This document shows, piece by piece, positions 24,908 to 58,930 of a stretch of DNA of 64,000 bases. Each line of letters starts with the position of its first letter. The first letter of the stretch is position 1. Source of the stretch: Nitrosopumilus sp. (GTDB taxonomy: Archaea; Thermoproteota; Nitrososphaeria; Nitrososphaerales; Nitrosopumilaceae); assembly GCA_965214775.1 (NCBI GenBank), contig OZ243974.1:224001-288000 (forward strand), in the 5' to 3' direction. The notes beneath the pieces are model-generated. The model was not told where the DNA came from. It saw only the letters and a program-made list of their open reading frames with translations, and made no database searches. The translations under genes and the position numbers were made by a program.

Positions 24908-25964
24908 CATGGACAGACAGAGAAAGGAATTCGTAGCATCAGGAAGCAAATTCCTGCCAAATACGTCACGCTCCTACCTGCACGAGGCGTACAAAAAGGA
25001 GACAGACAAGAGAAAGCGCGACAGGCTGCTTGCATACATGCAGCGCAAGGACGACCTTGGTGTGGAACAGATAGCAAAGAACCTCGACCGGGCACATTCC
25101 ACCATATCCAAGTGGCTCATCCGCGCACAGGACGAGGGAATACGTGCAAGGCACGAGCGGCCAGGCAGGGGACGCAAGCACAAGCTGAGTGAGTCGCAGC
25201 TGAAACAGCTTGCGGCGGATCTCAAGTCAGGATCCGAGGAGTGCGGTTTTGAGAGCAGCCTGTGGGACTCGGGCCTGATGAGACGGCACATCAAAAAGAA
25301 GTTCGGCATAGAATACAGCAAGAGCGGCACGCGGCTGCTGGCACGCGAGCTTGGGTTCTCATGGAGGAAGCCGAGGCCAAAGAACCCAAAGGCCGTCTCA
25401 AAACAAAAGCAGAACGAGTTCAAGGAGGCATCCCAGGAGCTGATACGGGAAAAGGAGGCGCAAGGGTATACGGTACTGGCAGAAGACGAGTCATCCATAC
25501 AAAAGACCTCAAACAGCCCCAAACACGGGTGGCTCAGGCGCGGCATGAGCGTCACGGCGCCCGTATCGCTGTCACGGCAGCGCCGGTACATGTTCGGCGT
25601 GCTGGCAGTTAACATATTCTACTATATGTTCTATGACAAGACCAACACCGACAGCTTTTGCGACTTTTTGGAAAAGGTGCACGAAAAGTACGGAAAGGTG
25701 TTGATATTCCTGGATAATGCGTCATACCACAAGTCTGTCGGCGTAAGGGAGATGCTGGAAAAGTACAAGGGCGAGATAATACTGGAGTACCTGCCGCCGT
25801 ACGCGCCGGAGCTCAATCCTGTAGAGATACAGTGGAGGGAGATAAAGCGGAGGCTGTCTGCCAAGATGTTTGATACGCTTGATGAGATGGAGCAGTCCGT
25901 GCGGAAGATGTTTGCCAGTGGAGAGATCCTACCGGTAAAGATGTTCCGATATTTGATGGGCTGA
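24908..25964 (+). CDS. IS630 transposase (intact; start approximate)
   Basis: HTH, GFSWRKPR, EDES, DNASYH, PELNPVE. Confidence 0.9.
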
Positions 25965-26097
25965 CTACTGCAGCAGCAGCAACAACAACTGTCGTATTCC
26001 ATACTGTCGGGTCTTGTGTGGCAGTATGTCAAACCCCCCATGCACGAATTAACTACTGCAGCAACAACAACTGTCGTATTCCATACTGTCGGGTCTA
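25965..26097 (+). repeat. Two ~45-bp direct repeats in the IS630 3' region
   Basis: ctactgcagcagc...aacaacaactgtcgtattccatactgtcgggtct at ~25965-26013 and ~26053-26097. Confidence 0.85.
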
Positions 26098-28859
26098 GTA
26101 CGCCTTGCGAAGACGTGAGTGCTTTGCTTGCCCAGGAATTTGTCCCTTGATGCCACAAATTCTGCCTGTTTTCCCATGCATGTGCGATGGTTTGCCTGAT
26201 CTTAATGTTTGGATCAAAAGCAGTTGTCAAAATTGTTCGTTTTTTTATGAATTAACTACGGCCGGATCATCCACATTTATGTTACGCAGGCCGGAGATGG
26301 CAGGCGGCGTGGTGTCCCGTATCGTCACGGTCTGGGCGGCCGTGACAGCATTGCCAGAGGAATCGGCTGCAGTCCACGTTACCGTGGTGTTGCCGAGCGG
26401 GGACGATTCCGGTGCGTCGTTTGTTATTGTGGGGCTGGGATCGGCAATGTCGGTGACAATGGGAGTCCCATAGTCGCCGGCATTCAGGATTGTCATGATA
26501 CCGGTGGCCTCGACCGTATGATCGGCAGGTGCTGTGATACTCGGCGGCGTGGTGTCCTGTATCATCACGGTCTGGGCGGCCGTGACAGCATTACCAGAGA
26601 AATCGGTGGCAGTCCATGTGATTACCGTGTTGCCGAGCGGGAACGATTCCGGTGCGTCGTTTGTTATTGCCGGATCTGGATCTGCAATGTCGGATGCAGT
26701 GGCCTGTCCTATGGATACAACAGTCAGTACGCCGGCGGCCTCGGCCGTGACATCTGGCGGTGCAGTTATACCCGGCAGTGTCGTGTCCCGTATCGTAACA
26801 GTCTGGGTGTCAGTAGCCGCGTTGCCAGAGTCATCCATGGCAGTCCATGTTACAATGGTGTTGCCGAGCGGGAACGATTCCGGTGCGTCGTTTGTTATTG
26901 TGGGGCTGGGATCGACAATGTCGGTGGCAGTGGCCTGTCCTATTGACACAATAGTCAGTACGCCGGCGGCCTCTGCTGTACGGTCAGCAGGCGCCGTGAT
27001 CCGGGGCAGCGTCGTATCCTGAACCGTCACGGTCTGGACAGCTGTTGCCGCGTTGCCCGAGTCATCTGTGGCAGTCCACGTGATTACCGTGTCGCCTAGA
27101 GGAAACGATTCCGGGGCGTTGTGCGTGATGTCGGGATCTGGATCCCGGTTGTCGGTGGCAGTGGCCTGTCCTATGAATACGGCAGTCAGCACGCCGGCAG
27201 CCTCTGCCGTGACATCTGCAGGCGCCGTGATTACGGGGTCAGTCGTGTCAGGGGATCCGCCGCCACCGCCACCGCCACCGCCACCGCCACCGCCGTTGCT
27301 CCCTCCACTTGCCATTATTACAACATTGTCTATCTCGACATGCTCGCTTGAGGAGCTGGACTTTGCCACGAACCTGATTTCTGCGGTGTCCTCCGTAATA
27401 TCAAGTGACAGGGACTCGTTGCTCCACGAGTCGCTGTCCTCGTTGTTGTCGTGGGTATAACTTGCAAGACCTATCCAGTTGGTTCCATCTGCAGAGTACT
27501 CTACAAACAGGCCCTCCCCGGCATCGACACTGGAGTCGACGAACCTGTCAAAGGAGATGGTCAGCGCGTCCTGCGTGTCAAACGTCGAGGATATCGTGGC
27601 GATGCAGGCAGAGTCGCAGTTGCTTGATATGAGCGCCTGGTTTGTCCGGCTGTTCTCGCCGGGCACGTCCTCGCCGGGATTCCCCGTCTCCCAGTCAGAA
27701 TCGCCTGACATGTGCCATTCTGAAAGATCCGACTCAAAGTCGTCGGAGAACTCCGTGATCGGGACGACGAGGTCGTATGGGAACTTGTCTATCCCGTGGG
27801 TGCTTGCCAGGGTGTACGGCTCGCCTCTGACGGTCGTCAGCGTTCCGTCGGATCTCACGGTGATTGTATAGAATCCGGTCTCCGGCGCATCAAACACGAC
27901 AAACTCGTTGTTCTGGACGTCAGAGTCGCTTGTCTTTGTCACACCGTTGGGAAACGTCACCGCGAGGTCATAGTTGTGGTACTGGTTTGGAAGCTGGACA
28001 TGCGGGCTGTTGATCGGAAGGGTGGGCGACAGTACTGTGCCTCCCGGATGTATCAGCCAGGACAGCAGTACCTTTACCTGCTCGTTTGCATCTGCGTGGA
28101 TCCTGTACGAGTTTGCCGCAAAGTTCCTCAAGCTTTGGTCGTACAGGACGTTTGGGTGCTGATTGTCGTTGGCATAGTCAAGGGATCTCGTTACGTTGAG
28201 TATGCCAAAGCCGTACCGGTTCATGGTATCATATATCCCGGCCCTACGGTCATCATAGTCTGCTGCCGTAGCCGGCGTGTCTGCCTGCCAGTCTGCGCCA
28301 AGCAGCAGTGCAGACTTTATCTCCAGCTGCCGGTAGTCAGGCTGTTTTTCTAGGATCAGGGTACGGGCGCCTGCCACAAAGGCGTTGGCAAAGCTCGTAC
28401 CGCTGTCTATTAGGTAGTCACGGTTTTCCATATCTCTGCGATCTGCTGCCTGTGCAAGATCAAGATCTACGCCAATTGCGGTTATCTCGGGCTTTATTCT
28501 GGGTGCGTCGCCGCCTGGAGTGTTGAACAGGGCAGGGCCCGGAACACTATAACGCCATATGGTGCTGTCCTCGTCCACGGCACCCACGCTGATGTAGTTA
28601 AAGCCGCATGCTAGCTTCTGTATATGTGGTGGGGGAACCACCTCCGTGTTAACTACGCCGTTCCCAATGGCCATGGAAAAGCTCAAGCCTTCATGCACTG
28701 CCCTGTCGATGACAATGGTAAGGGCAGAGTAGTCATTACATCCAAAACTTTGACGATCTGCCCGTGATGAAAGCGCTACAGTAATATCGTTAGTCATTAT
28801 CTCATCAAGTGCCCTAGCAAAGGAATTTTTTGCAGCTGGACTCTCACCCACGCCATCTA

Positions 28860-29952
28860 TACTGACGATCATTGAAAATTTCGCCTGATTACACGTCTTG
28901 TGAAGGTTTATAGATCTCCGCCATGGCCCTTCTGACATGAACAAGACGAAAATCCTCACGGACGCCATGCATGTAGAAAAGGATAACAGGGTTTATACCA
29001 GAATCCTGGCGGTGCGCTCCGTACTGCTTGGCAACACCACTGCACAGACCGCAGAGATTGCCGACGTGACACAGCGTACCGTACAGATGTGGGTTGAGAG
29101 GTTTGAGCTTGACGGCGTTGACGGTCTCCGTGACTCCCCCAACAGGGGCAAAAAGCCAAAGGTTCCAATCAACAGGATAAAAAAGATCGCCATGAGGCTG
29201 CGCAGGATGGAAAAGCTCACCCCAAAGAAGATGCGCAACTGGGTGCGCCGCAAACTGCATGTAACATACAGCGTTGGAAGCATCAGAAGAATCCTGCGCA
29301 CGATGGGATTCTCGCTAAAGACGTCAACTACCAAGCTGGCAGATGCTGCCGACGCAAAGGAGGTAAGACGATGGCAAAGGGAGGCAAAAGACACGATTAG
29401 GCTTGCAAAAAGGCGCGGATTCAGGATAACCGTACAGGACGAGTCGATATTCGTCAGTACGGGAAGGGACGGCAAAAAGTTCTGGTCGCCAGTGGGGGAC
29501 AGAATCGAGGTGCAACGATCCGGCAGAAGGGAGCGCGTCGTGGTATACGGAACGGTTGCAGACGACGGAACCAGGCTGATGCGTACATACGACAAGTTCA
29601 ACAGCATAAACTTTGTGCGTTATCTCAAGCAGGCGCGCAAAAAGTGGGGAAAGGTTCTGATTGTGATGGACAACGCAGCACAGCATAGGACCGGAAGGGT
29701 CCGCATGTACCTGGAGAAAAATCCCGACGTTATCCTGCTGTACCTGCCGGTAGCCAGGCCGGAGCTGAGCGCCATAGAGCCAATTTGGAAGGATGCCAAG
29801 TACATACTGGTCACATCTGCCTTTTACGATTCGGCAGATCACCTCAAAAGGGATGTCTCGGAATACTTTAGGACGTGTTCCATCAAGGTTGACATCTACA
29901 AATATCTTGAGCGCCGTGTGTAATCAGGCGAAATTTTCAATGATCGTCAGTA
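28860..29952 (+). mobile_element. Second IS630-family element, perfect ~35-bp TIRs, CTAG target
   Basis: TACTGACGATCATTGAAAATTTCGCCTGATTACAC at both ends with TA duplicated. Confidence 0.95.
28937..29923 (+). CDS. IS630 transposase (intact)
   Basis: QDES, MDNAAQH, PELSAIEPIW. Confidence 0.92.
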   Translation: MNKTKILTDAMHVEKDNRVYTRILAVRSVLLGNTTAQTAEIADVTQRTVQMWVERFELDGVDGLRDSPNRGKKPKVPINRIKKIAMRLRRMEKLTPKKMRNWVRRKLHVTYSVGSIRRILRTMGFSLKTSTTKLADAADAKEVRRWQREAKDTIRLAKRRGFRITVQDESIFVSTGRDGKKFWSPVGDRIEVQRSGRRERVVVYGTVADDGTRLMRTYDKFNSINFVRYLKQARKKWGKVLIVMDNAAQHRTGRVRMYLEKNPDVILLYLPVARPELSAIEPIWKDAKYILVTSAFYDSADHLKRDVSEYFRTCSIKVDIYKYLERRV

Positions 29953-30831
29953 TAGGCCAGCTAGGCGAATGTCATGGATCATAGAGTCGGGTGCCATTCC
30001 CACCATTGTGGAGTTGGTGCTGTTGGATACTATAATTGCGGAAATTGAAGTGGCGTGGTCGTCACCAGTCAGTGTAGTTTCAGTGCATTGGAGTTGGCTA
30101 CATATGATCGAAGCAGCCTTCTTATTTTGGAGGTCAGGGTGTGTAAAATCTGTACCCGTATCAATTAGTCCAACAGTGATCCCCTTGCCTGTATACGGAT
30201 ATGCGTCGGAGCCTACATTGGTGGCGTTAATTACGGCCTTGGCTTGCTCCAGTGTAATCCCCGGCGGTAATCCTGACGGTGATGCTGACGATGTCAGTTC
30301 CCCATGTCCGTCTCCAAGCTTGTAGACGTGATCATAACCTGCCAGATCTGCTATCCTGTTCACCGGGACGTCCGCGATGAGAAAGTCCAGACTCCTTGAC
30401 TTGAATATGTCCCGTGAGCCCATCCCCTTTAGCGTTTGCTCCAATCTGTCTTCGTATCCGTCATCTGTAATTATTATTACAGAATGCATAGCCAGTGTGG
30501 CGTTGTCTGCACGGTCTGTTCCTTCATGCGATGTCATGTTCTGCATACGCTGGATCTTTTCATAAAAACCGTCATCGAATTTGTACAGGTTGTCTTGTAC
30601 TTCGCCTGACTCTGAAAATGACAAAGTCGGAATGGAGAGCAAGACTGGTAGCAGAATGGCAAGACATGCTGCTTGATTCATGATTGGAGGTTATCATGGC
30701 GCTTTATAAAAAACGTTTGTAACCATCTATGTTAAAACGCCCGGGCCCTTTAGCGGCGGCGGACTATGTCTCTCTAATCCATGCCTAGTTTAACATGGGC
30801 CGCTTTATAGCTTGCGCTGGGTACAGGGGGA

Positions 30832-31895
30832 TGTATTATATGAAAATTATGTCGCACCATCACCGGTGTCCTCCTCCATCCATTTTGGGTTGCTTTTCCT
30901 GATCGCTTCTGTGGCCTCCCTGTCGGAGAATGCCCGCAGAGGCGTCTCGTAATTGTCGATGTCAAGCGACCAGTGCAGCCTGTCCTCGTTGTAGTAGCCT
31001 ATGTACGCAGACAGGCTCTCGTGGTTCCATATCTCCTCCTCGATGCTCCGATGGAAGCGCTCCAGCTTGCCGTTGGTCTGCGGGTGGTACGGCCTGGAGT
31101 TTATCAGCTCGATTCCGAGGTTGAGCAGCTCCTCCTCAAAGGCAGTCGGCGTCCACCCTTTCTTGGGAGGGTTCTTCCTCTTCTTCGAGTCCGAGCGTGC
31201 CCCGACAAAGCACTTGCCATTGTCTGATAGAATAGTAGCAGGTGCGCCGAACTGGGCCACGGCCTGCCGCAGGACCTCCACGACGTTCTCCGAGGTGGCC
31301 TCCCTGAACAGGCCCGCACCAGTCACGCACCTGGACGAGTCGTCCAGAAACGTGACCAGATTGAGCCCTGCAAAGCGCGGATCCTTCATGGTATGCCAGT
31401 CCACGTGCCACATGGCATTGGAGTATTTGCGCTCAAAGCGGACGTATTTTCTTGGCATTGATTTTGCGGGCGACGGCGTCACCAGTCCGTTTTCTTTCAT
31501 TATCCTGTATACCTCATAGTAGCTTATATCGAGTTGCCTTCGCAGCCTCCTGGCCGTATGAGCCACCCCTGCTGCACTGTGCTTGTGCTCCTGCAAGACG
31601 GCGCGCACGGCCCCGTCGGGAACCGGAGCGCTCCTTTTCCTTCCCGGCCTGGGCGGCACGTGGTGCGTGCCGCCTGTCTTCCTGAACCGGGCGTACATCC
31701 GCTGGACGTGCCTTGTCGTGACGCCTACTCCGGGGCCACCTCCGAGGGCCTTCGTCCCCCTGCACACTGCGTCACTGCGTATCGGATCTGCTTTGCCTCG
31801 AGCCTTGCAACCATCGGTTTTCTTGATCGGTAAAGCCCAAAGCAATCCCTTGCAACCCTCTTCAAATTAGTGCGACCTAATTTTCGTACAATAGA
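30832..31895 (-). mobile_element. IS481-family element; transposase frameshifted near 31727
   Basis: TIRs (TGTATTATATGAAAATTATGTCGCAC and inverse); WHVDW, LSDNG, PQTNGKLERF. True N-terminus MVARLEAKQIRY...EVAPE* is in another frame. Confidence 0.88.
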
Positions 31896-31901
31896 CCCTC
31901 C

Positions 31902-31940
31902 CCTGAAATCAGAAACAGATTTCAGAACCCGATCAGTTAC
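31902..31940. mobile_element. MITE family B right-end fragment
   Basis: cctgaaatcagaaac...cagaacccgatcaGTTAC. Confidence 0.55.
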
Positions 31941-31996
31941 CGGAGGAGGGTGTTCGGGCAACATGCTGAGCAGCGTATGCCGGTTCGCCTGCCGCC

Positions 31997-33394
31997 CTAG
32001 GACGGGTCAGACAGCCTTCCGATAAACAGTATGTTGCCCGTCTCCGTGTCCTGTATGACAAAGACAAACGGGTGGTCTGCTATAAACGGCTGAGACCATG
32101 ATGCTGTAGCTACTATTGCAGTCGTAGCGCCTGCCTCCGTCCCCTTTTCGTTTACGTTTATGAATGCCTTGTGGATTGCTTTAGACACGTACATCTGCAC
32201 GTCCTCGCCGGCGATGCCAGAGAGGTTTGCTGTCCCTTCAAAGAGCGAGGTCACGCCCATCGCCGACAGATCCCTTTTTAGGTCGTACGAGACGTCAAGG
32301 TTGAATCTTGGGAAATAGACTCCCAGTTTTTTACCTACAAGATCCCCCCTCCACTCCTCGAGGTTCTCGGCGCTCAGCAGCCCCTCCAGCTCGCCTATCC
32401 CTCCCTTGTCGTTTGGCAACAGCACGAGCATGGAGATGCGGTCGCCCACGTACGGCATCTCGAGGACCTGGTGTGTGCCCACGTCTGCGTGCCTGTAATA
32501 TTCCTCTCCATACATCATCGGGACTGTCACCTTTTTGTCTGGGGTCACCCAGAACGGGTAGTCCTCGATGGTTGCAGACTCGTCAAACGTGTTCACCCAG
32601 TCGCCCTTAAAATATACCGCGTTTGTTATGACCAGCGCCGTTGTGCCGTCGACGGAGCCGGACGCCAGGATCTCTTTTATCTTGCCGCCGGTGTTATCTG
32701 ACACCCACCCGTTAATCGTCTTGACCGCATCGCCGAATCCAAAGTTTACCTTCTCCACGCCGCTGTCGTAGTACATCCTTGCGGTCTGCACGTACTCCTC
32801 TAGCGGCTCGAGCCACTCTGCCAGCCACAGCGCGTTTGCAACCGACAGCCTGTACTCTGCGTCGTGCCTGTTCAGATCCGCCATTGCCGAGCCAAACTGC
32901 GTGCGTTTTTCCTCCGGAAACCCGAACACGTCGGTGAGCTCGTCTCTCGTGTCTCCCCCCGCCCCCTCGTGTGCAAGCGCAAAGGCGCTGAAGATGCTCC
33001 ACGGCGAGAAGACGATGTTTTGGCCCTCCTGCCCGGCGGCGCGGGAGTAAAAGTCCATTGCAAAGCCATTGTTTGCTGTCACGATCCCAGAATAGTCCAA
33101 GATCTCGGCGGGTATCAGGCCGCCGGCCTGCAGCAACAGGCGCGTGGACTCGGCGGCGCCGGCATCTGGCACGGTTATAGTCCACCCCATCCTTTCGGCA
33201 GTATCCTCCTTCACACATATGGCGTCATCGGCGCCACGCACGACCAGTATGAGTCCCTCCCTGCACAGAACATCCTCCGGAGAGACGCCGGCTGCAAGCT
33301 GCTTTAGCGGGGGCGGCACCTCTGCGTACGCGGTGGCAGTAAGGGCCACTACAGCCAGAACAAGAAAGAGTCCTACGGACAAGCGTCTAATCAT
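31997..33394 (-). CDS. Secreted serpin with PLKQ-Cys leader domain
   Basis: NIVFSPWSI, NAVYFKGDW, hinge EKGTEAGATT, FIADHPFVF...ILFIGR. Confidence 0.95.
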   Translation of the reverse strand: MIRRLSVGLFLVLAVVALTATAYAEVPPPLKQLAAGVSPEDVLCREGLILVVRGADDAICVKEDTAERMGWTITVPDAGAAESTRLLLQAGGLIPAEILDYSGIVTANNGFAMDFYSRAAGQEGQNIVFSPWSIFSAFALAHEGAGGDTRDELTDVFGFPEEKRTQFGSAMADLNRHDAEYRLSVANALWLAEWLEPLEEYVQTARMYYDSGVEKVNFGFGDAVKTINGWVSDNTGGKIKEILASGSVDGTTALVITNAVYFKGDWVNTFDESATIEDYPFWVTPDKKVTVPMMYGEEYYRHADVGTHQVLEMPYVGDRISMLVLLPNDKGGIGELEGLLSAENLEEWRGDLVGKKLGVYFPRFNLDVSYDLKRDLSAMGVTSLFEGTANLSGIAGEDVQMYVSKAIHKAFINVNEKGTEAGATTAIVATASWSQPFIADHPFVFVIQDTETGNILFIGRLSDPS

Positions 33395-33440
33395 GGCAGA
33401 TCTACGGGCATGTAGTTAAAAAGGCTGCCGCCGCGTACAA
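33270..33440 (-). repeat. Promoter + signal peptide + leader cassette, copy 2
   Basis: Matches 975-1150; TATA-like CTTTTTAA ~22 nt upstream of the ATG in both copies. Confidence 0.9.
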
Positions 33441-33552
33441 TGTGTGAGGTTACGCTCTTGCTGGTCAGACATTGGGTTATATGAAAATCATGTTCGTTAG
33501 TAATCGATGGTATGGAGTCACCTACCCCTCCCCCACCTCTCAGGCGACGGCA

Positions 33553-33643
33553 GTAAGAGTTTACCCCCAAGGCGGCACTGCTGGCCGGAGCCTTCGTGAT
33601 CATGCCTGCTGTGCCGTATCTCATGGAAGGGGTAAACTCTTAC
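33553..33643. mobile_element. MITE family E (TIR GTAAGAGTTTACCCC), probably IS66-derived
   Basis: TSD cgacggca/cgacgaca; copies at 52640 and 59107. Confidence 0.85.
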
Positions 33644-33705
33644 CGACGACACTTGGCAGGACCTTTAGCAATTAATTAAAGAAGGGTCTAAAACAACTGA
33701 GATCA

Positions 33706-34332
33706 GTGAATACAAAAGAAAAGCTTGTTTTGTCATCATTGTATCTGAGCCAGATCAGCGGAAAAACAGCATTGGAGATCATCAGGGAAAAGAGTGCGCC
33801 ATATGAAGAAGATAATGAAGAATACGGCTCCATTATCGGGAAACTAGTCCGGGAAAACCTGCTTGAAAGTGATTCCAAAACCCTGACAAAAGCTGGCAGG
33901 GACAGTCTCAAGGTGGTCCTGGCAGGAGGAGTCTTTGACATTATTCATCCCGGACACATCCATACGCTAAACTCTGCAAAACAACTCGGGGATGTTCTGG
34001 TGGTGGTAGTCGCAACAGACAATACCGCTGTTAAGATGAAAAAAAGACAGCCCCTTCATTCACAGGATCAAAGAAAGGAACTAGTAGAATCTCTGAGAAT
34101 GGTTGACTTGTGCCTAATTGGCCAGGAAGACGACATATTCAAGACGGTAAACCGCGTTAGGCCCCAGATAATTGCATTGGGATATGACCAGGTACATCAG
34201 GAGAAATTCATCAACGAAGGATGCAGAAAGATTGATCTGGATGCAAAAGTTGCAAGACTCCAATCTCCCATTCCGGATAGTTCAAGCTCTAAAATTCAAA
34301 GAAAGTACGGCAAGTCCATTCACGGGATCTAA
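33706..34332 (+). CDS. ribL: FAD synthase-like cytidyltransferase
   Basis: GGVFDIIHPGH, ALGYDQ, SSSKI; convergent with ribK. Confidence 0.8.
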   Translation: MNTKEKLVLSSLYLSQISGKTALEIIREKSAPYEEDNEEYGSIIGKLVRENLLESDSKTLTKAGRDSLKVVLAGGVFDIIHPGHIHTLNSAKQLGDVLVVVVATDNTAVKMKKRQPLHSQDQRKELVESLRMVDLCLIGQEDDIFKTVNRVRPQIIALGYDQVHQEKFINEGCRKIDLDAKVARLQSPIPDSSSSKIQRKYGKSIHGI

Positions 34333-47551: not shown

Positions 47552-47669
47552 GTAGCTGATCGGGTCATGAAAGTCGTTTCCGGCGACGGTTTTGGGCACA
47601 GATTCCGTTTTGATCGGCATTCATTGGGGGCAAAATCCGTGCCTGAATTTCCAGAGCATGGCATGTTAC
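47552..47669. mobile_element. Degenerate MITE family B between the divergent PII and tatA genes
   Basis: GTAGC...TGTTAC ends; TSD gtttaaat/gtctaaat. Confidence 0.7.
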
Positions 47670-47774
47670 GTCTAAATCGACAGGCAGATTCCCGTGTGAC
47701 TTTTCAAAAACGGGGCCTGGTCAGGCGTGACATGCAACATTACGTTTAATTTCAAACCGGATCATTGATGATAC

Positions 47775-48119
47775 ATGATTGGGCATCCATTAAACGTGGC
47801 AGGCAGCGAATGGATAATCATAATTTTTGTTGCACTAGTCCTGATTTTGGGAACAGGAAGATTGCCAGGAGCTGCAAAAAAACTTGGAAAAGCTGTCAGC
47901 GAGTACAATAAAGCAAGAAGCGACATACAAGACCACATGAAAGAGGTTGCGGAAAAAACACCCAAAATATCAGGACCTGTTGAATCTGAAAGGGAAAAAT
48001 TGGAAATGATTGCAAAATCCATCGGAGTAAAAACTGAAGAAAGATCCAATGACGAGTTGCGGAAAATCATTGCCGATAAAATTGGTCAAAAGAGGATCGA
48101 TGAGCATGAAACAAAATGA
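47775..48119 (+). CDS. tatA: TatA/E translocase subunit
   Basis: EWIIII...LILGTGRLPGAAKKLGKA. Confidence 0.88.
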   Translation: MIGHPLNVAGSEWIIIIFVALVLILGTGRLPGAAKKLGKAVSEYNKARSDIQDHMKEVAEKTPKISGPVESEREKLEMIAKSIGVKTEERSNDELRKIIADKIGQKRIDEHETK

Positions 48120-48181
48120 ATCGTTTTGATTTTTTGGCAACCAGTTATGTCAGAACAACCCGTTCCCGTCCCGTCCAGTGC

Positions 48182-48928
48182 CTAGAGCAAAAACTCCGCT
48201 GCGTTTGTGCCGTCCTTTGTAATCCTTATCCACCTGTTCCTGCCGATCTTCTCGGTCTCGATGAACCCCCACGTCTCCTCCAGAGGCTGGATGATGTTCT
48301 TGTCAAGGCTTGCAAACCTTGCCATCGAGTGGTTGGCCTCTTTTGCGTTGACCGTTATGAGGCCCTTGTCCTCAGATACCTGCGCCATCTCCTTTTTTGT
48401 CAGCCTGCCCCCGCGCTCCCTTATGATCCCTAGTGCGGCAACCAGCTTTGGCTCCGGCGTCCGGATAGAGTACGGGGGAACGTCGTGGATCTCCCTGATT
48501 CCGGTGGAGACGGGCTGCTTTTGGTCAAATCCCGGATAGTGTTCTGCCTCTGCATAAAACGGATGGATGCTGGAACCGTCATTGAACATCATGCATGCCA
48601 TCATGGTTCCGATTGCCTGGATCTTGCTTCCCGATGCTAGGTTCACATAGACGTCGTTTCCCTCCTCTTGCCCCAGGATGGTCTTGACTGCGCGGATGAT
48701 CTTAAACAGATCCCGCCTGTCATGGGATTCGGTAACAACCTTGACTCCTGACTCTTCAAGCCGTCTTGTGATCTCTGAGACAAAGGGCACTGCCTTGTCA
48801 TCACTCTTGTTGTCGTGTACGAGCAGCCAGACCCTGTCGGCCTTTTCCTGCACGGCAGGCAGAACTATCCTGTCTATCTCGTATCCTACGGGCGCCACAT
48901 GTACGCGCATCTTTGCAATCCTGACCAT
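48182..48928 (-). CDS. CARF-like (DUF6293/Csa3-like) + wHTH transcriptional regulator
   Basis: RVHVAPVGYEIDR, ADRVWL, YVNLASGSK Rossmann motifs; C-terminal wHTH ...GRNRWIRITKDG. Confidence 0.8.
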   Translation of the reverse strand: MVRIAKMRVHVAPVGYEIDRIVLPAVQEKADRVWLLVHDNKSDDKAVPFVSEITRRLEESGVKVVTESHDRRDLFKIIRAVKTILGQEEGNDVYVNLASGSKIQAIGTMMACMMFNDGSSIHPFYAEAEHYPGFDQKQPVSTGIREIHDVPPYSIRTPEPKLVAALGIIRERGGRLTKKEMAQVSEDKGLITVNAKEANHSMARFASLDKNIIQPLEETWGFIETEKIGRNRWIRITKDGTNAAEFLL

Positions 48929-48980
48929 AATAATATCCCAAGTATGCATACTATTGACATGCTATATAATAATTTCCCAA
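48927..48980. promoter_or_regulatory. Divergent promoter/operator
   Basis: Palindrome AGTATGCATACT (48941-48952) between direct repeats ATAATAAT(A/T)TCCCAA (48927-48941, 48966-48980). Confidence 0.6.
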
Positions 48981-48993
48981 TCTGTGTTACCTC

Positions 48994-49419
48994 ATGAAAC
49001 AGGCACACACCCAGAAGATAGCGCTTGACTCGTGCGTGGTGATCGACCTGATCGAAAGGCCGGGCATAGCCCATGCGCTCAGGGCCCGTCTCAGGGGCAA
49101 GTCACTGGAGGTGGTTCTCTGCGATGTGGTACTGCGGGAGGTTCAAAAGGTCAGGGGGTTGTCCTCAAAAACGGTGATCGGGAGAATCTCCAAAATCCTC
49201 GGTAGGCGGATCGAACTGGCAAAGGCCGGTGAGCACAACAGGGCCGCCGCACACGAAATTACCGACCGGTTCCAGATCTGCCACAACGGGGACAATGAGA
49301 TTCTCAGCCTGTGCCGGACAAGGGACTTTGTACTGGTAACATTTGACAGGATGCTTCTCAAGACATGCCAGTTTCTCGGCGTTGCGGCATTTCATCCGTC
49401 AGAGGCAGGAGGTATCTGA
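48994..49419 (+). CDS. PIN-domain ribonuclease (VapC-like)
   Basis: ALDSCV, VLRE, GDNEIL, LVTFDRML acidic tetrad. Confidence 0.85.
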   Translation: MKQAHTQKIALDSCVVIDLIERPGIAHALRARLRGKSLEVVLCDVVLREVQKVRGLSSKTVIGRISKILGRRIELAKAGEHNRAAAHEITDRFQICHNGDNEILSLCRTRDFVLVTFDRMLLKTCQFLGVAAFHPSEAGGI

Positions 49420-49421
49420 AG

Positions 49422-49499
49422 ATGAGCCATGCGTATCCCAGGATTGTCAGGGAGTTTGATGACGAGGATGACGAGCCGATGGTGTACGGGGGCCGCTAA
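49422..49499 (+). CDS. Possible 25-aa acidic peptide
   Basis: MSHAYPRIVREFDDEDDEPMVYGGR*, starting 2 nt after the PIN stop with GGAGGT upstream. Confidence 0.35.
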   Translation: MSHAYPRIVREFDDEDDEPMVYGGR

Positions 49500-49974
49500 G
49501 TTGGAGGCCGCCAGAGACACCCATGCATCTTTTGCAAAGACGGTGGACTGCCGCAGTACGGGATCTAGGACAGAGGTGCAGCAGCAACAGCGGCTGCCAT
49601 CGGTGGGGAGCACCGGGTCTGCAACAGCCATCATCAACTACACAAAACAGACTGACTCCCACAAAAAAAGCCTGTCTGAGGCGCTTGTCAACTCGTTTGG
49701 AGGATATCCGATAGGGTACGGCCTGGGGATTGTGATCCTGCCCATGTCCATGGGATGGATTCGGGAGGATCCGCTGACGGCCAACCTGGCGATAACCTTC
49801 GTCTATGCCTCGGTCTCCTTTGCAAGGAGTTACTTTCTGAGGAGAATCTTTGAGCGGCTGGGAATTGATGACAACTTTATAAGAATGGGGATGAGGTTGG
49901 GCGCCAAAATAAAGTCCGGTCTGGGAGGTCGACGATACCCCTTTTATGGACATGTGACGGGTGTAAAGATATGA
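49429..49974 (+). CDS. Small membrane protein (true start probably downstream)
   Basis: DSHKKSLSEALVN..GYPIG...SFARSYFLRRIFE with two TM segments; stop overlaps the next ATG. Confidence 0.6.
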   Translation: MRIPGLSGSLMTRMTSRWCTGAAKLEAARDTHASFAKTVDCRSTGSRTEVQQQQRLPSVGSTGSATAIINYTKQTDSHKKSLSEALVNSFGGYPIGYGLGIVILPMSMGWIREDPLTANLAITFVYASVSFARSYFLRRIFERLGIDDNFIRMGMRLGAKIKSGLGGRRYPFYGHVTGVKI

Positions 49975-51483
49975 CAAGTATAACGTTTTACGGAGGAGTC
50001 AAGGACATTGGTGGAAACAAGTTCCTCGTAGAGTCCAAGGGTACGAAGATTTTCATGGATTTTGGGATGAGCTTTGGGGACGAAAACAAGTATTTTTCAG
50101 AGTATCTCAAGCCCCGTGGTGCAAACAGCCTTACTGACATGATCGAGCTTGGAATCCTGCCCAAGGTAAAAGGGCTCTACAGAACAGATTATGCCAAGCA
50201 CATGGGTTTTAGGGGAGACGAGGAGACCGAAATCGACGGCCTGCTGCTTACCCATGCACACGTCGATCACTGCGCATACATCAAGTACATAAGGCCCGAT
50301 ATTCCGATTTACTGCTCCGAAGAGTCGTATCTGATAATGAAGAATTTCGATGAGACGGGAAGCGGGGAGCAGTATCTGACACTGAAGAAAAATTTTGGGT
50401 TTCATAAGAGCACAAAGGGCTCAACGAAGGGAAAGATGGTCAAAGACACAAAGGATACGAAAATCCAGAGGACGATCAAGGTTTTTAAGAGCTACAAAAA
50501 GTTCAACATCGACTCGATAGGAGTCGAGCCGCTGCCGGTGGACCACTCGATATCAGGTGTTCACGGGTTTGTGTTGGATACCCCCGAGGGGATCATTGCA
50601 AACACCGCCGACCTGAGGTTTCACGGACGCAGGGCAAGGGACACCGAAAGGTTCGTTGAGAGATGCTCAGAGGCATCCCTGGATCTGTTGTTGTGTGAGG
50701 GGACGAGAATAAACAGCACGTCGTCGCCCACCGAATACGACGTAGAGAAGAGAATCACAGATATAGTCAACAGCACAGAAAACCTCGTAATCTGCGGATA
50801 CCCGATCAGGGATTTGGACAGGCTCCAGTCGTTTTATCTGGCTGCAAAAAAAAACCGGCAGGGACCTGGTCATCGAGCCAAAGCAGGCATACCTCTTGAA
50901 GCTCTTCAACGAGTCTGAAAACCTAAGGGGTCTCTACCCGAGCCCGACGGACAGTCACATCAAGATCTACATGCCAAAGGGTCAATGGGGACTGATTGAC
51001 AAGGACATTAAGGTACATACCAGAAAGCTTCTCGATGAGGACTATGGGATATGGGTACGGGAGTTTCTGGACTATGGCAACAAGATTGACTATCGTGACG
51101 TGTCCCTGAAACAAAAGGAGCTGATGTTATCGCTCAGTGACTTCAAGCTGCAGGAACTGATTGACATCAGGCCCAAGGAGGGGTCAAGCTATGTCAGGTC
51201 TCTGACCGAGCCGTTTGATACCGAGATGGAGCTTAAGCAGCAAAGGATCAAAAACTGGTTTGCAAGGTTCGGGCTGATCTCTGCAGAAAAAAAGTGGCAT
51301 CAGATCCATGTCTCGGGGCACGGGGATGGAGAGCAGATCAAAAAAATCATAGAGGGCGCCAATGCCAAAAAAATCATTCCGATTCATACCGAGCTTGGCA
51401 ACGAGGTATATCACAGGATGTGGCACCAAAACGTCGAATCGGTGAATCAGAACGACTCTGTAAAAATAGGGGGCGCATCCTGA
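49971..51483 (+). CDS. MBL-fold beta-CASP (RNase J-like) nuclease, frameshifted in an A9 run at 50846-50854
   Basis: GGVKDIGGN, DFG, THAHVDH, VDHS, ADLRFHG, CEGT, HVSGH, PIHTE. A8 gives ...AAKKTGRDLVIEPKQAYLL... and a 503-aa ORF. Confidence 0.85.
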
Positions 51484-51484
51484 C

Positions 51485-52027
51485 ATGAATCTGGTTCCAG
51501 ATATCAGGCAAAGACCGGGCCCGCAGCAGCAGGTATCTATACGAGACGCTGGAGACGAACAGAAATCCTTGCAGGAGAACGAGGATTCGCAGTATCAGGA
51601 GATCTTTTACTGGAAGGGCAGTATTGCAGACACCGCGCCAAGCAATCCTAACGGGTTCAAACCCATTGATCTGCCAAAGGCGCTGGATGAGACCATGAAT
51701 CTGGTAAATGGTGATCCGACTTACAAGGATCCGCATGATGCGCAGATCATGTTTTACAACCAGAAAAACTTTGACTCTCTGGGCATTATCCGGACGCGCG
51801 AGGATCTGTGGAGCCTTTCCACTCCCGTGTTTTGTGACGACGATCGCTGTCGCTTCAAGCACATAACCAACTGTAACACCAGAAGGCTTGTGGACATAAT
51901 CGAGGCGCTCTTTGTGGCAGATGACTGGCATGGAATGGCCGATTTTCGGTTTGCCCGTTGGGTATATGAGTTTGAGATGTCCTATTCTGGTCCTGACAAT
52001 CCGGACGCAATCAGAAAGGCCATATAG
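51485..52027 (+). CDS. Hypothetical protein
   Basis: 180-aa ORF starting 1 nt after the nuclease stop. Confidence 0.6.
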   Translation: MNLVPDIRQRPGPQQQVSIRDAGDEQKSLQENEDSQYQEIFYWKGSIADTAPSNPNGFKPIDLPKALDETMNLVNGDPTYKDPHDAQIMFYNQKNFDSLGIIRTREDLWSLSTPVFCDDDRCRFKHITNCNTRRLVDIIEALFVADDWHGMADFRFARWVYEFEMSYSGPDNPDAIRKAI

Positions 52028-52063
52028 GAGTTGGGTATATGAGTTTGAGATGTCCTATTCTGG
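51957..52063 (+). repeat. Two identical 34-bp direct repeats with a 39-bp spacer
   Basis: GTTGGGTATATGAGTTTGAGATGTCCTATTCTGG at 51957-51990 and 52030-52063. Confidence 0.9.
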
Positions 52064-52123
52064 CCCGGTTGGATGGTCATATCGAAGGGTTTCTGTGCGT
52101 AAAGATACCAATCGGTTGGAGGA

Positions 52124-52333
52124 TTGGAGATGATTAGGGCCCGCAGGCTGTTCCTAGTGCCGGTTCTGGCAATACTGTTCACCTCGTGGATACCTCTTGT
52201 CGGGATACCCGCGTGCATAATTCTGATTGTATGGTGGTATACGCGCAATCAGACAGACATACACGATTATTTCCGTGGAAGAAGTCATAGAAAGGGGGAG
52301 TTAAGCCGCGATGAGACAGAAAAATGGCGGTAA
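52124..52333 (+). CDS. Small membrane protein
   Basis: Hydrophobic hairpin LFLVPVLAILFTSWIPLVGIPACIILIVWW. Confidence 0.55.
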   Translation: MEMIRARRLFLVPVLAILFTSWIPLVGIPACIILIVWWYTRNQTDIHDYFRGRSHRKGELSRDETEKWR

Positions 52334-52370
52334 GGCCCCGCATGTCAGCCGGACTGCAGGCAGCAAGGCA

Positions 52371-52624
52371 GAGAGGTGATCTGAAATCAGAAGGTAACAG
52401 GTCGGGCTCTGGAAGCTGCTCCTGATTTTAGGCACGAATCTACACTGGAGGCCTCCCCGAGATGGCAAAACTCGCACCTGAACTTCCAGAGCCCTACCTG
52501 TTACATCAGAAGCCGTGGGAATTTTTCAAGTGGTTTTACAGATAATTTGTGTTTTGTTGATGTTTTGAGTTGTCTTATGTAATCATTTACAAGTAATCTG
52601 GCTCTGCTAATTGAGCCAACTCTC
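52371..52624. mobile_element. MITE family A carrying a nested MITE B
   Basis: GAGAGGTGATCTGAAATCAG...CAACTCTC interrupted at 52394-52504. Confidence 0.85.
52394..52504. mobile_element. Complete MITE family B (111 bp), IS66-like ends
   Basis: GTAACAGGTCGGGCTCTGGAAG...CTTCCAGAGCCCTACCTGTTAC with perfect 8-bp TSD ATCAGAAG. Confidence 0.9.
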
Positions 52625-52639
52625 AGCGGAGATATACAA

Positions 52640-52727
52640 GGAGTTTACCCCTCACCTGAGATACGGCGTGGCAGGCGTGATCATGAAGGCTCCAGGCAGC
52701 AGTGTCGCCTGAGGGGTAAACTCGTAC
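52640..52727. mobile_element. MITE family E
   Basis: GAGTTTACCCC...GGGGTAAACTCGTAC; TSD GATATACA. Confidence 0.8.
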
Positions 52728-52772
52728 GATATACAAAGCCATCAAGAGGCAGCGGCCTCTGCTCTTGTCTTT

Positions 52773-53046
52773 GGGGTTGTCGCCTGATTCATCAGAATTT
52801 CTGAAAACCATGCGATGTTATCCTGACTAGGCGTGCAAAAATGGCGGAGATTCAGAAAAGCGTGCGGATTGAGTCCGGCAGGTGGAATTAGGCGACAATC
52901 CCTTGTCTCTGTCGACGTGGAGGTTGTTGCCTAATTCGCCAGAATTCCTGAAAACCATGCGATGTTATTCGGATCAGGTGTGCAAGAGGGCGGAAATTCA
53001 AAAGAACGTCAGGTTGAGTCAAACAAATGAAGTTAGGAAACGGCCC
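52773..53046. mobile_element. Two tandem copies of MITE family D (52773-52902, ~52920-53046)
   Basis: TIR GGGGTTGTCGCCT/AGGCGACAATCCC, TSD ttgtcttt/ttgtctct, shared core ctgaaaaccatgcgatgttat. Confidence 0.75.
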
Positions 53047-53206
53047 ACCTCCTCTTCCTCTCTGCTGTCGATGATCTGACTGCAAACCTTGCAAAAAAAC
53101 CAGGGCCGTTTTCTGAGAAATGCAAGTGACTGCCGAGTCCTGTCCGAAACAATAATGGCCCGGGCTTTTGGCGTTCCTATGCCGCATCTGCACCACGAGC
53201 AAGACA

Positions 53207-53297
53207 TAGTGCGCACAGTTGAAATCTGAAAATTTTTTATCAAAATAGGCACGATATGTCAAAATTACGGTCCGTTTTTTTTTTGATGTGCGCACTA
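53207..53297. mobile_element. MITE family C
   Basis: TAGTGCGCACA...TGTGCGCACTA, matching 1270-1357. Confidence 0.85.
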
Positions 53298-53349
53298 TAG
53301 ACGGCATTCTGAAACAATAAATCACTAATCAATCCACGGCAAGTAGATC

Positions 53350-55866
53350 TTGAAATTTCCATGTCCCAAATGCAAGTCAAAAATTGAGATTCAAAAGACA
53401 TTCAACAAAAAAATGCACGTTTCTTGCAGCAAATGTGGCATATGGGATCTTTTGGAATTTGCAAAGAATCCTGATGAAGTGTTTCTGGAATTTTTGGAAA
53501 GATACGACAAGGGATTAGTTGGCAGGAAGGGAGGGTTAGAAGAGAGTCTCAATGCAGAAGAGATAATAAGATCAGAAGGCGAAATCAAGGGCTTGATCGG
53601 AGAGAAAAACCCCGACAGGATTACTGAGGAAATACTATATTCAAAAAAAGACTACATCTCAGAATACAGGGTTTTGAAGAATCCTGAGCCCGAAATGGGC
53701 AGCAAAATTGAGGATTTGGGACTGGAAGACGGAATCACAGATCACCTGTCAGATTTAGGAATAAGGCAGCTTTACAAGTTTCAAGAGGAGTCCATTTCTG
53801 AAATTCTTTATGGCCAGAACATCGTAATCGAGGCACCGACTGCTTCTGGAAAAACCGAGGCGTTCTTGATTCCCATAGTCCAGAAAATAAAAAAAGACGG
53901 AGTCAAAGGCAATGTTTTTGCGATTTTTGTATATCCCACAAAGGCCCTTGCACGAGATCAGCATCCCAAGATAAAGAATCTTGCAGACAAGGTTGGAATC
54001 AGAGTAGGGGTTTTTGACGGAGACACACGACTTGAAGAAAGAAGAGACATTATTGACAATCCTCCACACATACTTGTAACAAATTTCGATGTCTTGCACT
54101 ATCACATGTGGCATCAGACAAAATTTTCGTCAATTTTAACATCAACGCAGATGCTAGTCGCAGATGAAGCACATGTCTATTCAGGCATTTTTGGAACAAA
54201 CGTTCACTATATCATCAAGCGATTAAAGCGAATTTGCGCAAAAAAGATCCAGTTTATTGCGGCGTCTGCAACACTTGATGACGCCAAAGAATTTTGTCAG
54301 GAATTGTTTGGCGAGGAGGAAATGCAACTGATTCACGGTTCTGGAAAAAAAGGCCAAACGGACTTTGTCATGATGTTTCCGTCACTTCGAACGCAAAGGG
54401 CCTTGATGGTAGATTTGACAAAACGGCTAACGCAAAAAAAACACAAAACAATGGTTTTCAACAACTCCCATCTAAATTCAGAACTTTTAGCCATTCAAGC
54501 TAAAAAGCAAAAAGTCAACATCAAGGTTCACAGGGCAGGACTAATGGCCAAATACAGAACGTCAGTCGAAAAGCAATTCAAAGAGGATAGTCTGGATGCA
54601 ATATCCTGCACTCCCACGCTTGAACTAGGCATAGATGTAGGAGATGTTGACGGGGTAATCTCGTCCACAATTCCCGTCAACAGGCTTACTCAAAGGATAG
54701 GCCGCGCGGCAAGAAAAGGTCAAAGGGGATACGCATTTTTGGCATTGGGAAATGATCCGATTTCCCAGTATTACAAAAATCACCCGGATGATTATTTTGA
54801 GGACATAGAGAAGACATACATAGATCCTAAAAACCCATTTGTCGAAGAATTCCAAGTCTTGGCAATGGCTTGTGATAGGCCAATATCCAAGCACGAGTTA
54901 AAAGAGCATCAGGAGATAATCGGGCATCACCTGACCAACGGGAATCTAAAAGAACACGGAAACAGAATAATCCCCAATTTTGAGAAAGTTTCCCCAATGC
55001 TAGACGACTACAGCATCAGGGGCATTGGAAAGTCAATAGATATTTTTCTTAATGGGAAAAAAGTCGGAGATAGAGTTTTACCAATCGCACTTGAGGAACT
55101 GCATGAATCTGCGATATATTTTTTGGCAGGGACAAGATACCGTGTCAAAGAACTGGACTATCCTAGAAAAAATTATGCAAAGCTGGAAAGGATTCCAAGA
55201 GACTATCCATATTATACAAAGGCACTCACAGAAGAATGGCCCACAATAGAAACAGTCTATGAACGGCGAACTGCAAATGGAATGGAAGTTGCGTTTTGCA
55301 AATTACGCATTGAGAAAAAAGTTCACGGTTATGTAAACATGGAACTAGGTCAGGAAATTACGCAGGGTGAAAAGATGATGCTTGATGAGCCATTAGAATA
55401 CGGCTTTATTACAAAGGGAATTGTATTTCATGCTCCACGTCCAACGAAGACTATCAAAGAATCCGAAGATGAGGAATATGCCGAAGCCAGCGGATATCAT
55501 GCAACTGAACATGTCGTAATTGAAGGAAGCAACATGATCACAGGAGGGGTTTCCCAGGATTTGGGAGGCATTTCGTTGGGCACTTCAGGCCTGATTTTTG
55601 TGTATGACGCGGCCATCGGAGGCAGCGGGGCAAGCAAAGCCCTCTATGACAGACTTGAAAGAGCCCTTGAGAGAAGCATGCATATTGTAAGAGAATGTCC
55701 ATGTAAAAGCGAGGCAGGATGCCCGAGATGCACATTCTCATACAGATGCGGAAACAATAACGAATATCTCCACAAGCATTCTGCACTAGAAGTTCTTGAG
55801 AGGATCAACGGCGGTCAAAAGACCAGGCTGATTGATCCGGCAAAAGAAGACAGGCCTTTGGTCTGA
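53350..55866 (+). CDS. DEAH-box helicase with C-terminal DUF1998 zinc site (Hrq1/MrfA-like)
   Basis: PTASGKT, DEAH, SAT, QRIGRAAR, CPCKSEAGCPRC. Confidence 0.92.
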   Translation: MKFPCPKCKSKIEIQKTFNKKMHVSCSKCGIWDLLEFAKNPDEVFLEFLERYDKGLVGRKGGLEESLNAEEIIRSEGEIKGLIGEKNPDRITEEILYSKKDYISEYRVLKNPEPEMGSKIEDLGLEDGITDHLSDLGIRQLYKFQEESISEILYGQNIVIEAPTASGKTEAFLIPIVQKIKKDGVKGNVFAIFVYPTKALARDQHPKIKNLADKVGIRVGVFDGDTRLEERRDIIDNPPHILVTNFDVLHYHMWHQTKFSSILTSTQMLVADEAHVYSGIFGTNVHYIIKRLKRICAKKIQFIAASATLDDAKEFCQELFGEEEMQLIHGSGKKGQTDFVMMFPSLRTQRALMVDLTKRLTQKKHKTMVFNNSHLNSELLAIQAKKQKVNIKVHRAGLMAKYRTSVEKQFKEDSLDAISCTPTLELGIDVGDVDGVISSTIPVNRLTQRIGRAARKGQRGYAFLALGNDPISQYYKNHPDDYFEDIEKTYIDPKNPFVEEFQVLAMACDRPISKHELKEHQEIIGHHLTNGNLKEHGNRIIPNFEKVSPMLDDYSIRGIGKSIDIFLNGKKVGDRVLPIALEELHESAIYFLAGTRYRVKELDYPRKNYAKLERIPRDYPYYTKALTEEWPTIETVYERRTANGMEVAFCKLRIEKKVHGYVNMELGQEITQGEKMMLDEPLEYGFITKGIVFHAPRPTKTIKESEDEEYAEASGYHATEHVVIEGSNMITGGVSQDLGGISLGTSGLIFVYDAAIGGSGASKALYDRLERALERSMHIVRECPCKSEAGCPRCTFSYRCGNNNEYLHKHSALEVLERINGGQKTRLIDPAKEDRPLV

Positions 55867-58815: not shown

Positions 58816-58930
58816 GCCGGGGTAGCTCAGCCTGGTTAGAGTGCCAGTTCACTTGGTAATCTCTAAAGGTTCTCCAACTAAGGCAATACTCATAATCTGG
58901 AGGTCGCGAGTTCGAAACTCGCCCCCGGCA
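58816..58930 (+). tRNA. tRNA-Met(CAT), elongator type, with a 40-nt non-canonical intron (58848-58887)
   Basis: GCCGGGG/CCCCGGC acceptor stem, TTCGAAA T-loop, CCAG^A-CTCATAA-TCTGG anticodon arm; BHB with TGCC/GGCA helix. Confidence 0.88.

Follow-up and report, generated by a model that had tools for sequence, protein, structure and literature searches.

A mobile accessory cassette around a CARF-wHTH regulator of the DUF6293 family in Nitrosopumilus

What does a CARF-type sensor control when it is encoded far from any cas gene, in a genome in which no known messenger synthase is found? This question is raised by a stretch of 64,000 nucleotides of a Nitrosopumilus sp. genome (GCA_965214775.1, contig OZ243974.1, positions 224,001 to 288,000 of the forward strand), referred to here as the window, whose own numbering is used throughout unless another contig or locus is named. 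In this window the gene of a regulator with a CARF domain and a winged helix-turn-helix (wHTH) domain, referred to as REG, is divergent from the genes of a PIN-domain nuclease, a DUF7220 protein and a metallo-β-lactamase (MBL)/β-CASP nuclease, followed by two open reading frames (ORFs) of 180 and 69 aa. An original prediction, made from the sequence alone, described these genes as a ligand-regulated ribonuclease or defence island. It is found here that REG, together with PIN and/or DUF7220 and/or β-CASP, recurs patchily across the Nitrosopumilaceae, and that this cassette is mobile, being present at different chromosomal sites; as a regulator-gated unit it is plausibly related to defence or stress.

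The regulator and its control region

The REG gene (48182..48928, minus strand) codes for a protein of 248 aa that, on its sequence, is a member of the DUF6293/HFX_2341 family, as both Pfam domains are matched above their cut-offs: HFX_2341_N (PF19810; 1.1e-36, 126.3 bits, cut-off 30) and the wHTH domain DUF6293_C (PF22665; 2.3e-22, 79.8 bits, cut-off 27). Weaker Pfam matches are seen with Csa3_N, Card1 CARF and Cas_APE2256, and the PADLOC model CARF3, a label which is used here only as the name of that model, is matched at 2.3e-77. The family comprises 1782 proteins at E <= 1e-5, named only DUF6293 or HFX_2341-family, from Nitrosopumilus, Nitrosarchaeum and their relatives. REG is neither an orthologue of HFX_2341 itself (NCBIfam equivalog NF051475, 22 bits, cut-off 500) nor, by TIGR01884 (24 bits, cut-off 60.2), Csa3.

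The AlphaFold2 model of REG, calculated with an alignment of 17 sequences, has a pLDDT of 88.6, and only residues 1-10 are below 50. When this model is compared with the Protein Data Bank (PDB) by Foldseek, all the top matches listed are CARF proteins, with E values down to 2.6e-08. In the structural alignments (VIA-align), residues 13-162 superimpose on the CARF domain of T. thermophilus Csm6 with a Z score of 17.3 and a root-mean-square deviation of 2.7 over 137 residues, and residues 13-255 superimpose on the CARF-wHTH proteins Sis0811, SSO1393 and Csa3 with Z scores of 13-15. The N-terminal domain is thus a CARF fold in the predicted structure, in agreement with the CARF-like/wHTH assignment that had been made from the letters of the DNA; a sequence search of the PDB with REG gives only chance-level matches (E 0.25 or worse). 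The conserved loop residues of the 17-sequence alignment are R15, P20, G22, E24, R27, N103, G107 and K109, at which a ligand may be bound.

The start of the REG gene deserves attention. The longest ORF (48182-48949) would give a protein of 255 aa, and the 'MHT...' start of this ORF, which has seven extra codons, is the palindrome described below read in frame; the likely real start is at 48928, and the annotated 255-aa start is corrected as an artefact of the regulator's own operator. With the start at 48928, the intergenic region shared by REG and PIN (48929..48993, no strand) is 65 bp long, as had been estimated. It contains a candidate operator palindrome of 14 bp (48940-48953) and a TATA-like box (48963-48972) whose centre is ~26 nt before the PIN ATG, a distance as expected for a leaderless archaeal transcript. 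On the REG side, the palindrome is placed between the TATA box and the REG start.

This architecture is preserved in the relatives. When the REG-PIN spacers of 14 loci are aligned (REG being 56-88% identical to that of the window), conservation is highest in the non-coding DNA, whose invariant blocks are the TTATTATATA box and the palindrome, with the consensus ATAGTATGCATACTAT. Sufficient sequence upstream of REG is available in 79 loci; the 14-nt palindrome core (with <=2 mismatches) is found 25 nt before the REG ATG in 76 of them and the TATA box in 72. When random pieces of these loci were searched for the same motif as a control, 36 of 1500 gave a match. The palindrome and the TATA box are kept with or without PIN as a neighbour, and the operator therefore belongs to REG itself. 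In the 2.83-Mb genome, AGTATGCATACT has a single occurrence (0.21 expected), and the palindrome sites with one mismatch number eight, its own locus included, which is the chance expectation; REG would then be a local rather than a global regulator. The fixed TATA-palindrome operator is also a ready and cheap handle for tests.

Recurrence and mobility of the cassette

Among 185,579 species genomes scanned, 274 relatives are confirmed, of which the best 80 loci have been kept; four of these coincide with loci of an earlier set of related loci, so that the two sets overlap. Among the 80 loci, every record whose title gives the lineage is from the Nitrososphaerota, mostly from the Nitrosopumilaceae. 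The linkage counts refer to those 64 related loci that have 2.5 kb or more of upstream sequence, unless another number is given. In 24 of 77 loci the PIN gene is divergent from REG at a distance of up to 300 nt, REG being without PIN in the other 53, and DUF7220 can replace PIN directly beside REG. DUF7220 is upstream of REG on the opposite strand in 27 loci, β-CASP is upstream in 13 and anywhere in the locus in 19, and the three genes PIN, DUF7220 and β-CASP are together in five loci. When considering PIN or DUF7220, at least one is divergent from REG in 39/64 loci, and the combination noticed in the window is thus conserved elsewhere.

The presence of these genes is also patchy within the genus. 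In a survey of 41 genomes, the host genome included (with 24 genomes of the genus and 16 other genera), REG is found in 11 of the 24 genus genomes, once as a fragment, and DUF7220 in nine, and neither is found in any of the 16 other genera. The core genes that flank the island in the window, in comparison, are present in most of the 100 sampled genomes of the genus, the MFS-type transporter gene in 88 and the helicase gene with the DEAD and MrfA Zn-binding domains in 97. This bears out the accessory nature of the genes, as opposed to scattered core genes. A quick maximum-likelihood tree, for which the careful search is unfinished, was built from 75 REG rows, six rows with short or interrupted matches being left out. 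The window is placed in a clade of 16 rows (SH-aLRT 99), and cargo is present in 16/16 of these.

The closest copy of the cassette is in another genome, in an unrelated context, with a REG that is 88% identical and with DNA that is 84% identical over 48180-49954. In this copy a homologue of the 69-aa protein (75% identical) comes immediately after DUF7220; compared with it, the window thus has an additional segment, 49955-52124, which holds β-CASP and the 180-aa ORF. The family of repeats that closes the island in the window is also found beside the cassette copy of this closest relative (L045 6456-6585).

Other REG homologues have neighbours of several defence-related kinds: UvrD-PD-(D/E)xK helicase-nucleases, McrBC, Mrr, GmrSD and a Cap4-nuclease fragment, as well as type I and IIG restriction-modification genes, an integrase and transposases. 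In two relatives (L038 7035-10639 and L029 7414-11177), REG paralogues are divergent from ubiquitin-like conjugation sets, one with multiubiquitin, E2, E1 and TIR proteins, the other with a YukD-like ubiquitin-like protein, JAB and E1. The same type of regulator may therefore serve other defence-like cargo.

The cargo genes and the island

The genes divergent from REG are separated by 10, -4, 1 and 96 nt. The first of these is the PIN gene (48994..49419, plus strand, 141 aa), which is matched by Pfam PIN at 7.4e-06 (27 bits, cut-off 23.6) and whose acidic tetrad, D12, E49, D100 and D118, is invariant in 21/21 aligned homologues. It is followed by the DUF7220 gene (49429..49974, plus strand, an ORF of 181 aa; PF23858 at 9e-18, phrog_4276 at 4.4e-12). 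In an alignment of 24 sequences, the conserved core of DUF7220 is about 100 residues long (about 73-150), and the N-terminal 70 residues are common only to the closest relative. The gene had been labelled a two-transmembrane protein; its presence stands, and the label is weak, as the protein is only moderately hydrophobic, with two stretches whose Kyte-Doolittle 19-residue peaks reach only 1.35 and 1.08. Homologues are present in 4/50,697 phage records, next to hypothetical proteins, and the plasmid collection has no match. The dN/dS values with respect to the closest relative are 0.14 for REG, 0.19 for PIN and 0.15 for the DUF7220 core, the N-extension of the latter being almost free (0.66); by these ratios, REG, PIN and DUF7220 are under purifying selection and still maintained here.

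The run of genes is tightly coupled, as had been proposed, by the 4-nt overlap of DUF7220 and β-CASP (ATGA) and the 1-nt gap before the 180-aa ORF. The overlap, which is kept in two relatives, points to translational coupling. The β-CASP gene itself is split in two: a first piece of 315 aa (49971..50918, plus strand) with a Lactamase_B_2 match, whose frame is lost at a run of nine A (A9; 50846-50854), and a second piece of 195 aa (50896..51483, plus strand, +1 frame) with the RMMBL domain (PF07521, 1.2e-07). A run of eight A would keep the frame. In relatives the two pieces share one frame and β-CASP is a single ORF of 469-498 aa; in forms of 493-494 aa, AAK[NS]TNRDLVI is read through the frameshift site. 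The A9 run is without difference or gap in the contigs of four runs from three studies, the best-matching of which may be the source sample, and the shift is therefore real in the DNA of this lineage. The annotation of this nuclease gene is corrected accordingly as frameshifted; the protein is probably inactivated by the A8-to-A9 slip, or at best expressed via slippage.

The description of this gene as an RNase J-like nuclease holds in part. The general MBL/RMMBL fold family is matched in Pfam, and among solved sequences EF2904 (2az4, 1.7e-23) and RNase J (7pcr, 1.3e-10) come closest to the intact relative, the MBL and RMMBL domains being shared with the gene of the window; however, it is an accessory, multi-copy gene, split by the frameshift, and with 50.3 bits it is far below the cut-off of 400 of the RNase J family TIGR00649, of which it is not a member. 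The host genome has three β-CASP paralogues, two of them broken. The intact paralogue of 498 aa (C1:1569137-1570636) is beside the gene of a NucS_C-domain protein in a GC-rich islet ~2 kb from amoA, and its 86% orthologue in the closest relative (L045) is 3.3 kb from the REG gene. The other broken paralogue (C1:1776979-1778565) is interrupted by ~30 inserted codons, two of which are in-frame stops; a repeated IKG(IYRRDY) motif on either side of the insert suggests a small insertion with target duplication.

The last two genes are small. The acidic 180-aa ORF (51485..52027, plus strand) has no match in Pfam, NCBIfam, PADLOC or PHROGs and no tblastn match in the 14 + 80 related loci; in 5.8 billion clusters only seven protein matches are found, the query itself counted, one of them a 55% paralogue in the same genome that adjoins transposases. 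By these comparisons, the ORF is lineage-specific and outside the conserved cassette. Two direct repeats of 37 nt, 97% identical and 73 nt apart (51957-51993 and 52030-52066; repeat family search), are copies of the 3' end (the last codons) of this ORF; the pair is located near the right-hand end of the additional segment that is missing in the closest relative. The small transmembrane protein that had been proposed is clearly present: the 69-aa protein (52124..52333, plus strand) has one clear transmembrane segment (residues 17-35, Kyte-Doolittle score 2.3), and besides the closest relative there are weaker matches in two further loci.

These genes lie in an island of 5172 nt (48136..53307, no strand), bounded by the core genes of tatA (47775-48119, the left flank) and the MrfA-type helicase. 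The limits follow from the comparison with the relative closest at this locus (L125), in which blastn homology ends at 48135, just past an oligo-T run behind tatA, and returns at 53308. The genes are found where the original prediction had placed them, between tatA and a pile of inverted and direct repeats like those of miniature inverted-repeat transposable elements (MITEs), which closes the island (52394..53300; repeat search) and over which (52324-53328) the contig depth is 10-48x that of the flanks in four runs. An N6_N4 DNA methylase gene occupies the same gap in all three relatives examined and is replaced by the island here, and the distance from the transporter gene to the helicase gene, 6143 nt here, is only ~1.3-1.7 kb in six of seven relatives and 2.6 kb in the remaining one. 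The GC content of 48-53 kb is 0.49-0.545, compared with 0.42-0.44 in the flanks and 0.471 in the whole genome. Rfam has no match within the island, and the matches of the island proteins in PHROGs are, apart from DUF7220, only weak ones to hydrolase or PhoH-like families.

Two candidates were set aside. A contig joint 47636->53214, which would skip 5577 nt, is taken as a repeat artefact, because its sides are only 28 nt long and are in MITE-like sequence that is present at both 47629-47672, where a 44-nt fragment of this kind is found left of tatA, and 52464-52507. The helicase (53350-55866, plus strand) matches the PADLOC models BrxHI, SngC and DruE, yet it is a core gene and is outside the island, given its presence and domains in the genus as described above; the case is a caution that PADLOC helicase matches alone are a poor ground for calling defence genes. 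Elsewhere in the window, a second GC-rich stretch (23000-34000, 0.52-0.62) has three DDE_3 transposases and an rve integrase-core gene, together with genes of secreted-type proteins (HYR, Laminin_G, subtilase and serpin), and at 58816-58930 (plus strand) Rfam gives a tRNA of 115 nt (48.2 bits), probably bearing an intron, while ARAGORN gave no tRNA in the whole window.

Possible functions of the cassette

The explanation that is favoured here, with about an even chance of being correct, is that of a mobile accessory cassette around a self-regulated, sensor-type regulator that gates nuclease cargo. REG would bind the predicted palindrome, probably as a dimer, beside a TATA box that would also serve the leaderless PIN transcript in the other direction, such that REG would repress itself and gate the divergent operon of PIN, DUF7220, β-CASP and the small membrane protein. 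A small ligand or an RNA-derived signal at the CARF domain would alter the DNA binding of REG, and the released nucleases, perhaps together with the hydrophobic proteins, would act on RNA, leading to growth arrest or to a block of an invading element. A defence or antiviral role is suggested by the kinds of genes and by their neighbourhoods. The cassette would then be a Csa3-like regulator tied to its effectors by a promoter instead of a fusion and free of cas genes. The type III CARF effectors (Csm6/Csx1, Can2, Card1, Cam1 and the CARF-PIN fusions) similarly couple a CARF sensor to a nuclease or membrane effector, and their CARF domains are the best structural matches of REG, but in the window the sensor and the effectors are separate genes joined by a promoter, and no Cas10 is found. 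The CARF-PIN fusions are described in PMC4012209.

As to the source of a signal, in the complete genome (99.9% complete) the searches for a cyclic-oligonucleotide synthase give no Cmr2 and no GGDEF match, although unknown synthase families could remain; Csm1 scores 15.4 bits (cut-off 170) and SMODS 17.4 bits (cut-off 26.5). The sole CRISPR-Cas locus is of type I-B (C1:2420112-2433412), with Cas8b1, Cas7, Cas5, Cas3, Cas6, Cas1, Cas2 and Cas4 and 65 repeats of 37 nt; it is 2.15 Mb from the island, and its Cas1, at 2.426 Mb, is the only one. The proposal of a cas-independent module under the control of a nucleotide signal is therefore in agreement with the data when considering the CARF sensor and the absence of cas genes nearby, and a cyclic oligoadenylate signal in particular is not supported, as no synthase is above its cut-off in the genome.

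Several observations weigh against the favoured explanation. With no cyclic-nucleotide synthase found, there is no known origin for a nucleotide signal. In 23/64 loci PIN, DUF7220 and β-CASP are all missing; in the tree, two clades of seven rows each together hold 12 of these 23 rows, in conserved contexts, and some REG genes have housekeeping-type neighbours, namely hemerythrin, metallophosphatase and a binding protein in one clade and Mre11/Rad50 in others. The REG family is therefore not purely defence-linked. The neighbourhoods have been called by a simple longest-ORF rule, and the locus counts are not independent events, because the 80 loci were selected as the best out of 274 and are related among themselves. 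In the host genome, β-CASP is frameshifted in the island and interrupted by stops in a second of the three paralogues. PADLOC-DB 2.0 names no system, and of the seven island proteins only REG is matched, by CARF models only; this also agrees with the earlier statement that the combination is not a named system. No description of the cassette was found in the literature searched, and the main text of Krupovic et al. 2019 (PMC6563490) does not mention PIN, Csa3, RNase J or β-CASP. As a whole, the original prediction is partly supported: it had named as refutations a combination not conserved elsewhere, an N-terminal domain without the CARF fold, and genes scattered as core genes in free-living relatives, and none of these three was observed.

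It could also be argued that the island is the remnant of an integrated mobile element, in which REG is the repressor of the element, like phage CI, and the divergent genes are an early or maintenance operon without a function in host defence. This would be in agreement with the strings of ORFs of 60-130 aa without Pfam matches between REG and DUF7220 in four relatives (L047, L052, L066 and L095), with the integrase and transposases near REG in some loci, with the matches of DUF7220 to phrog_4276 and to the phage records, and with the atypical GC content, the MITEs at the edge and the different chromosomal sites. However, the island of the window has no integrase, replication or structural gene in the Pfam and PHROGs searches, tRNA and repeat searches find no tRNA and no att-like direct repeat at its ends, the five PHROGs matches other than that of DUF7220 are absent or weak, and the same regulator with the same operator is also found in conserved chromosomal contexts. 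We consider this explanation unlikely, although it is the alternative that survives best.

Less likely still is a toxin-antitoxin-like pair, in which PIN would be a VapC-type toxin that REG neutralises or tightly represses, the other genes being passengers. REG and PIN are the most constant pair, as judged by the 24/77 loci in which they are divergent within 300 nt; both are under purifying selection, and the PIN protein resembles the VapBC nucleases in being small and in having an intact, invariant acidic tetrad. On the other hand, the two genes are divergent and not co-transcribed, and no VapB-like gene precedes PIN, whose upstream neighbour is the divergent, 248-aa CARF-wHTH gene REG, with no ORF between them. 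The 53/77 loci in which REG is without PIN, and the replacement of PIN by DUF7220, also do not fit a dedicated pair. Finally, no fused REG forms, REG-PIN included, are found among proteins of 435-2000 aa, which is weak evidence.

A general chromosomal role of REG, which would make it a bystander without control of the cargo, is very unlikely. It is suggested by the founding member of DUF6293, HFX_2341 of Haloferax mediterranei, which, in PMC11434293, is shown to be a transcriptional repressor and is described as global, its ligand being unknown, and also by the REG clades in conserved, non-accessory contexts. The two proteins share both Pfam domains and the Csa3-like plan of CARF and wHTH domains, and the host of HFX_2341, like that of REG, is reported in that paper to have a type I-B CRISPR-Cas system and no cyclic oligoadenylate cyclase. 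However, HFX_2341 is described there as vertically inherited as well as global, whereas REG is patchy and mobile, with a single operator and nuclease cargo. The exact palindrome is found only at the REG locus, the eight sites with one mismatch being those expected by chance, the spacing between the shared TATA box and the PIN start is promoter-like even in diverged loci, and REG and the cargo move together to new sites. The HFX_2341 locus is also described as a self-targeting hotspot, unlike the island of the window: the 64 spacers of the host, compared with its genome outside the array, give only chance matches of 13-25 nt, none of them in the island.

The Csa3/Csa3a proteins of the Sulfolobales have the same two-domain architecture as REG, residues 14-255 of which superimpose on 2wte, 6w11 and 6wxq with Z scores of 13.2-13.7, and Csa3 regulates via a palindromic, promoter-proximal site. 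The loop motifs of REG after strands 1 and 4 (PVGYE..R and N.ASGSK) are invariant or nearly so in the 17 sequences and resemble those of Csa3. That the cassette is a cyclic oligoadenylate module, in which a Csa3-type sensor of cA4 or cA6 switches on ribonucleases, is nevertheless the least likely of the explanations and a highly improbable one. The closest solved folds are indeed cA4- or cA6-binding CARF domains, Csa3-cA4 included, but REG is 2.15 Mb from the cas genes, which are of type I-B only, it is below the Csa3 cut-off of TIGR01884, and the searches described above leave the genome without a cA4 source.

A wider idea can be put forward tentatively, which as it stands is rather unlikely: that ammonia-oxidising archaea carry a CRISPR-independent CARF module, in which a stand-alone sensor reads a signal that is not made by Cas10, and one shared promoter releases variable effectors. 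The signal could be a product of RNA breakdown, as for RtcR, or a nucleotide made by a virus, and the effectors would be PIN, DUF7220 and β-CASP here, and helicase-nucleases or ubiquitin-like conjugation sets beside the paralogues. RtcR is a CARF-domain regulator outside CRISPR whose target operon acts on RNA and whose signal comes from RNA instead of being a cyclic oligoadenylate, as described in PMC7790460; it differs from REG in being a bacterial sigma-54 AAA+ activator, and its RtcBA cargo repairs RNA and does not cut it.

Among the sensors of second messengers in prokaryotic immunity, CARF domains are the best known, and here one is found in a genome without a known messenger synthase. 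Its ligand, if found, would reveal what CARF sensors respond to beyond type III CRISPR. Ammonia oxidisers of the sea and the soil have a major part in the nitrogen cycle and face strong pressure from viruses, yet little is known of their defence and stress modules. If the wider idea is true, the DUF6293 regulator would play in archaea the part that shared regulators play in the defence islands of bacteria.

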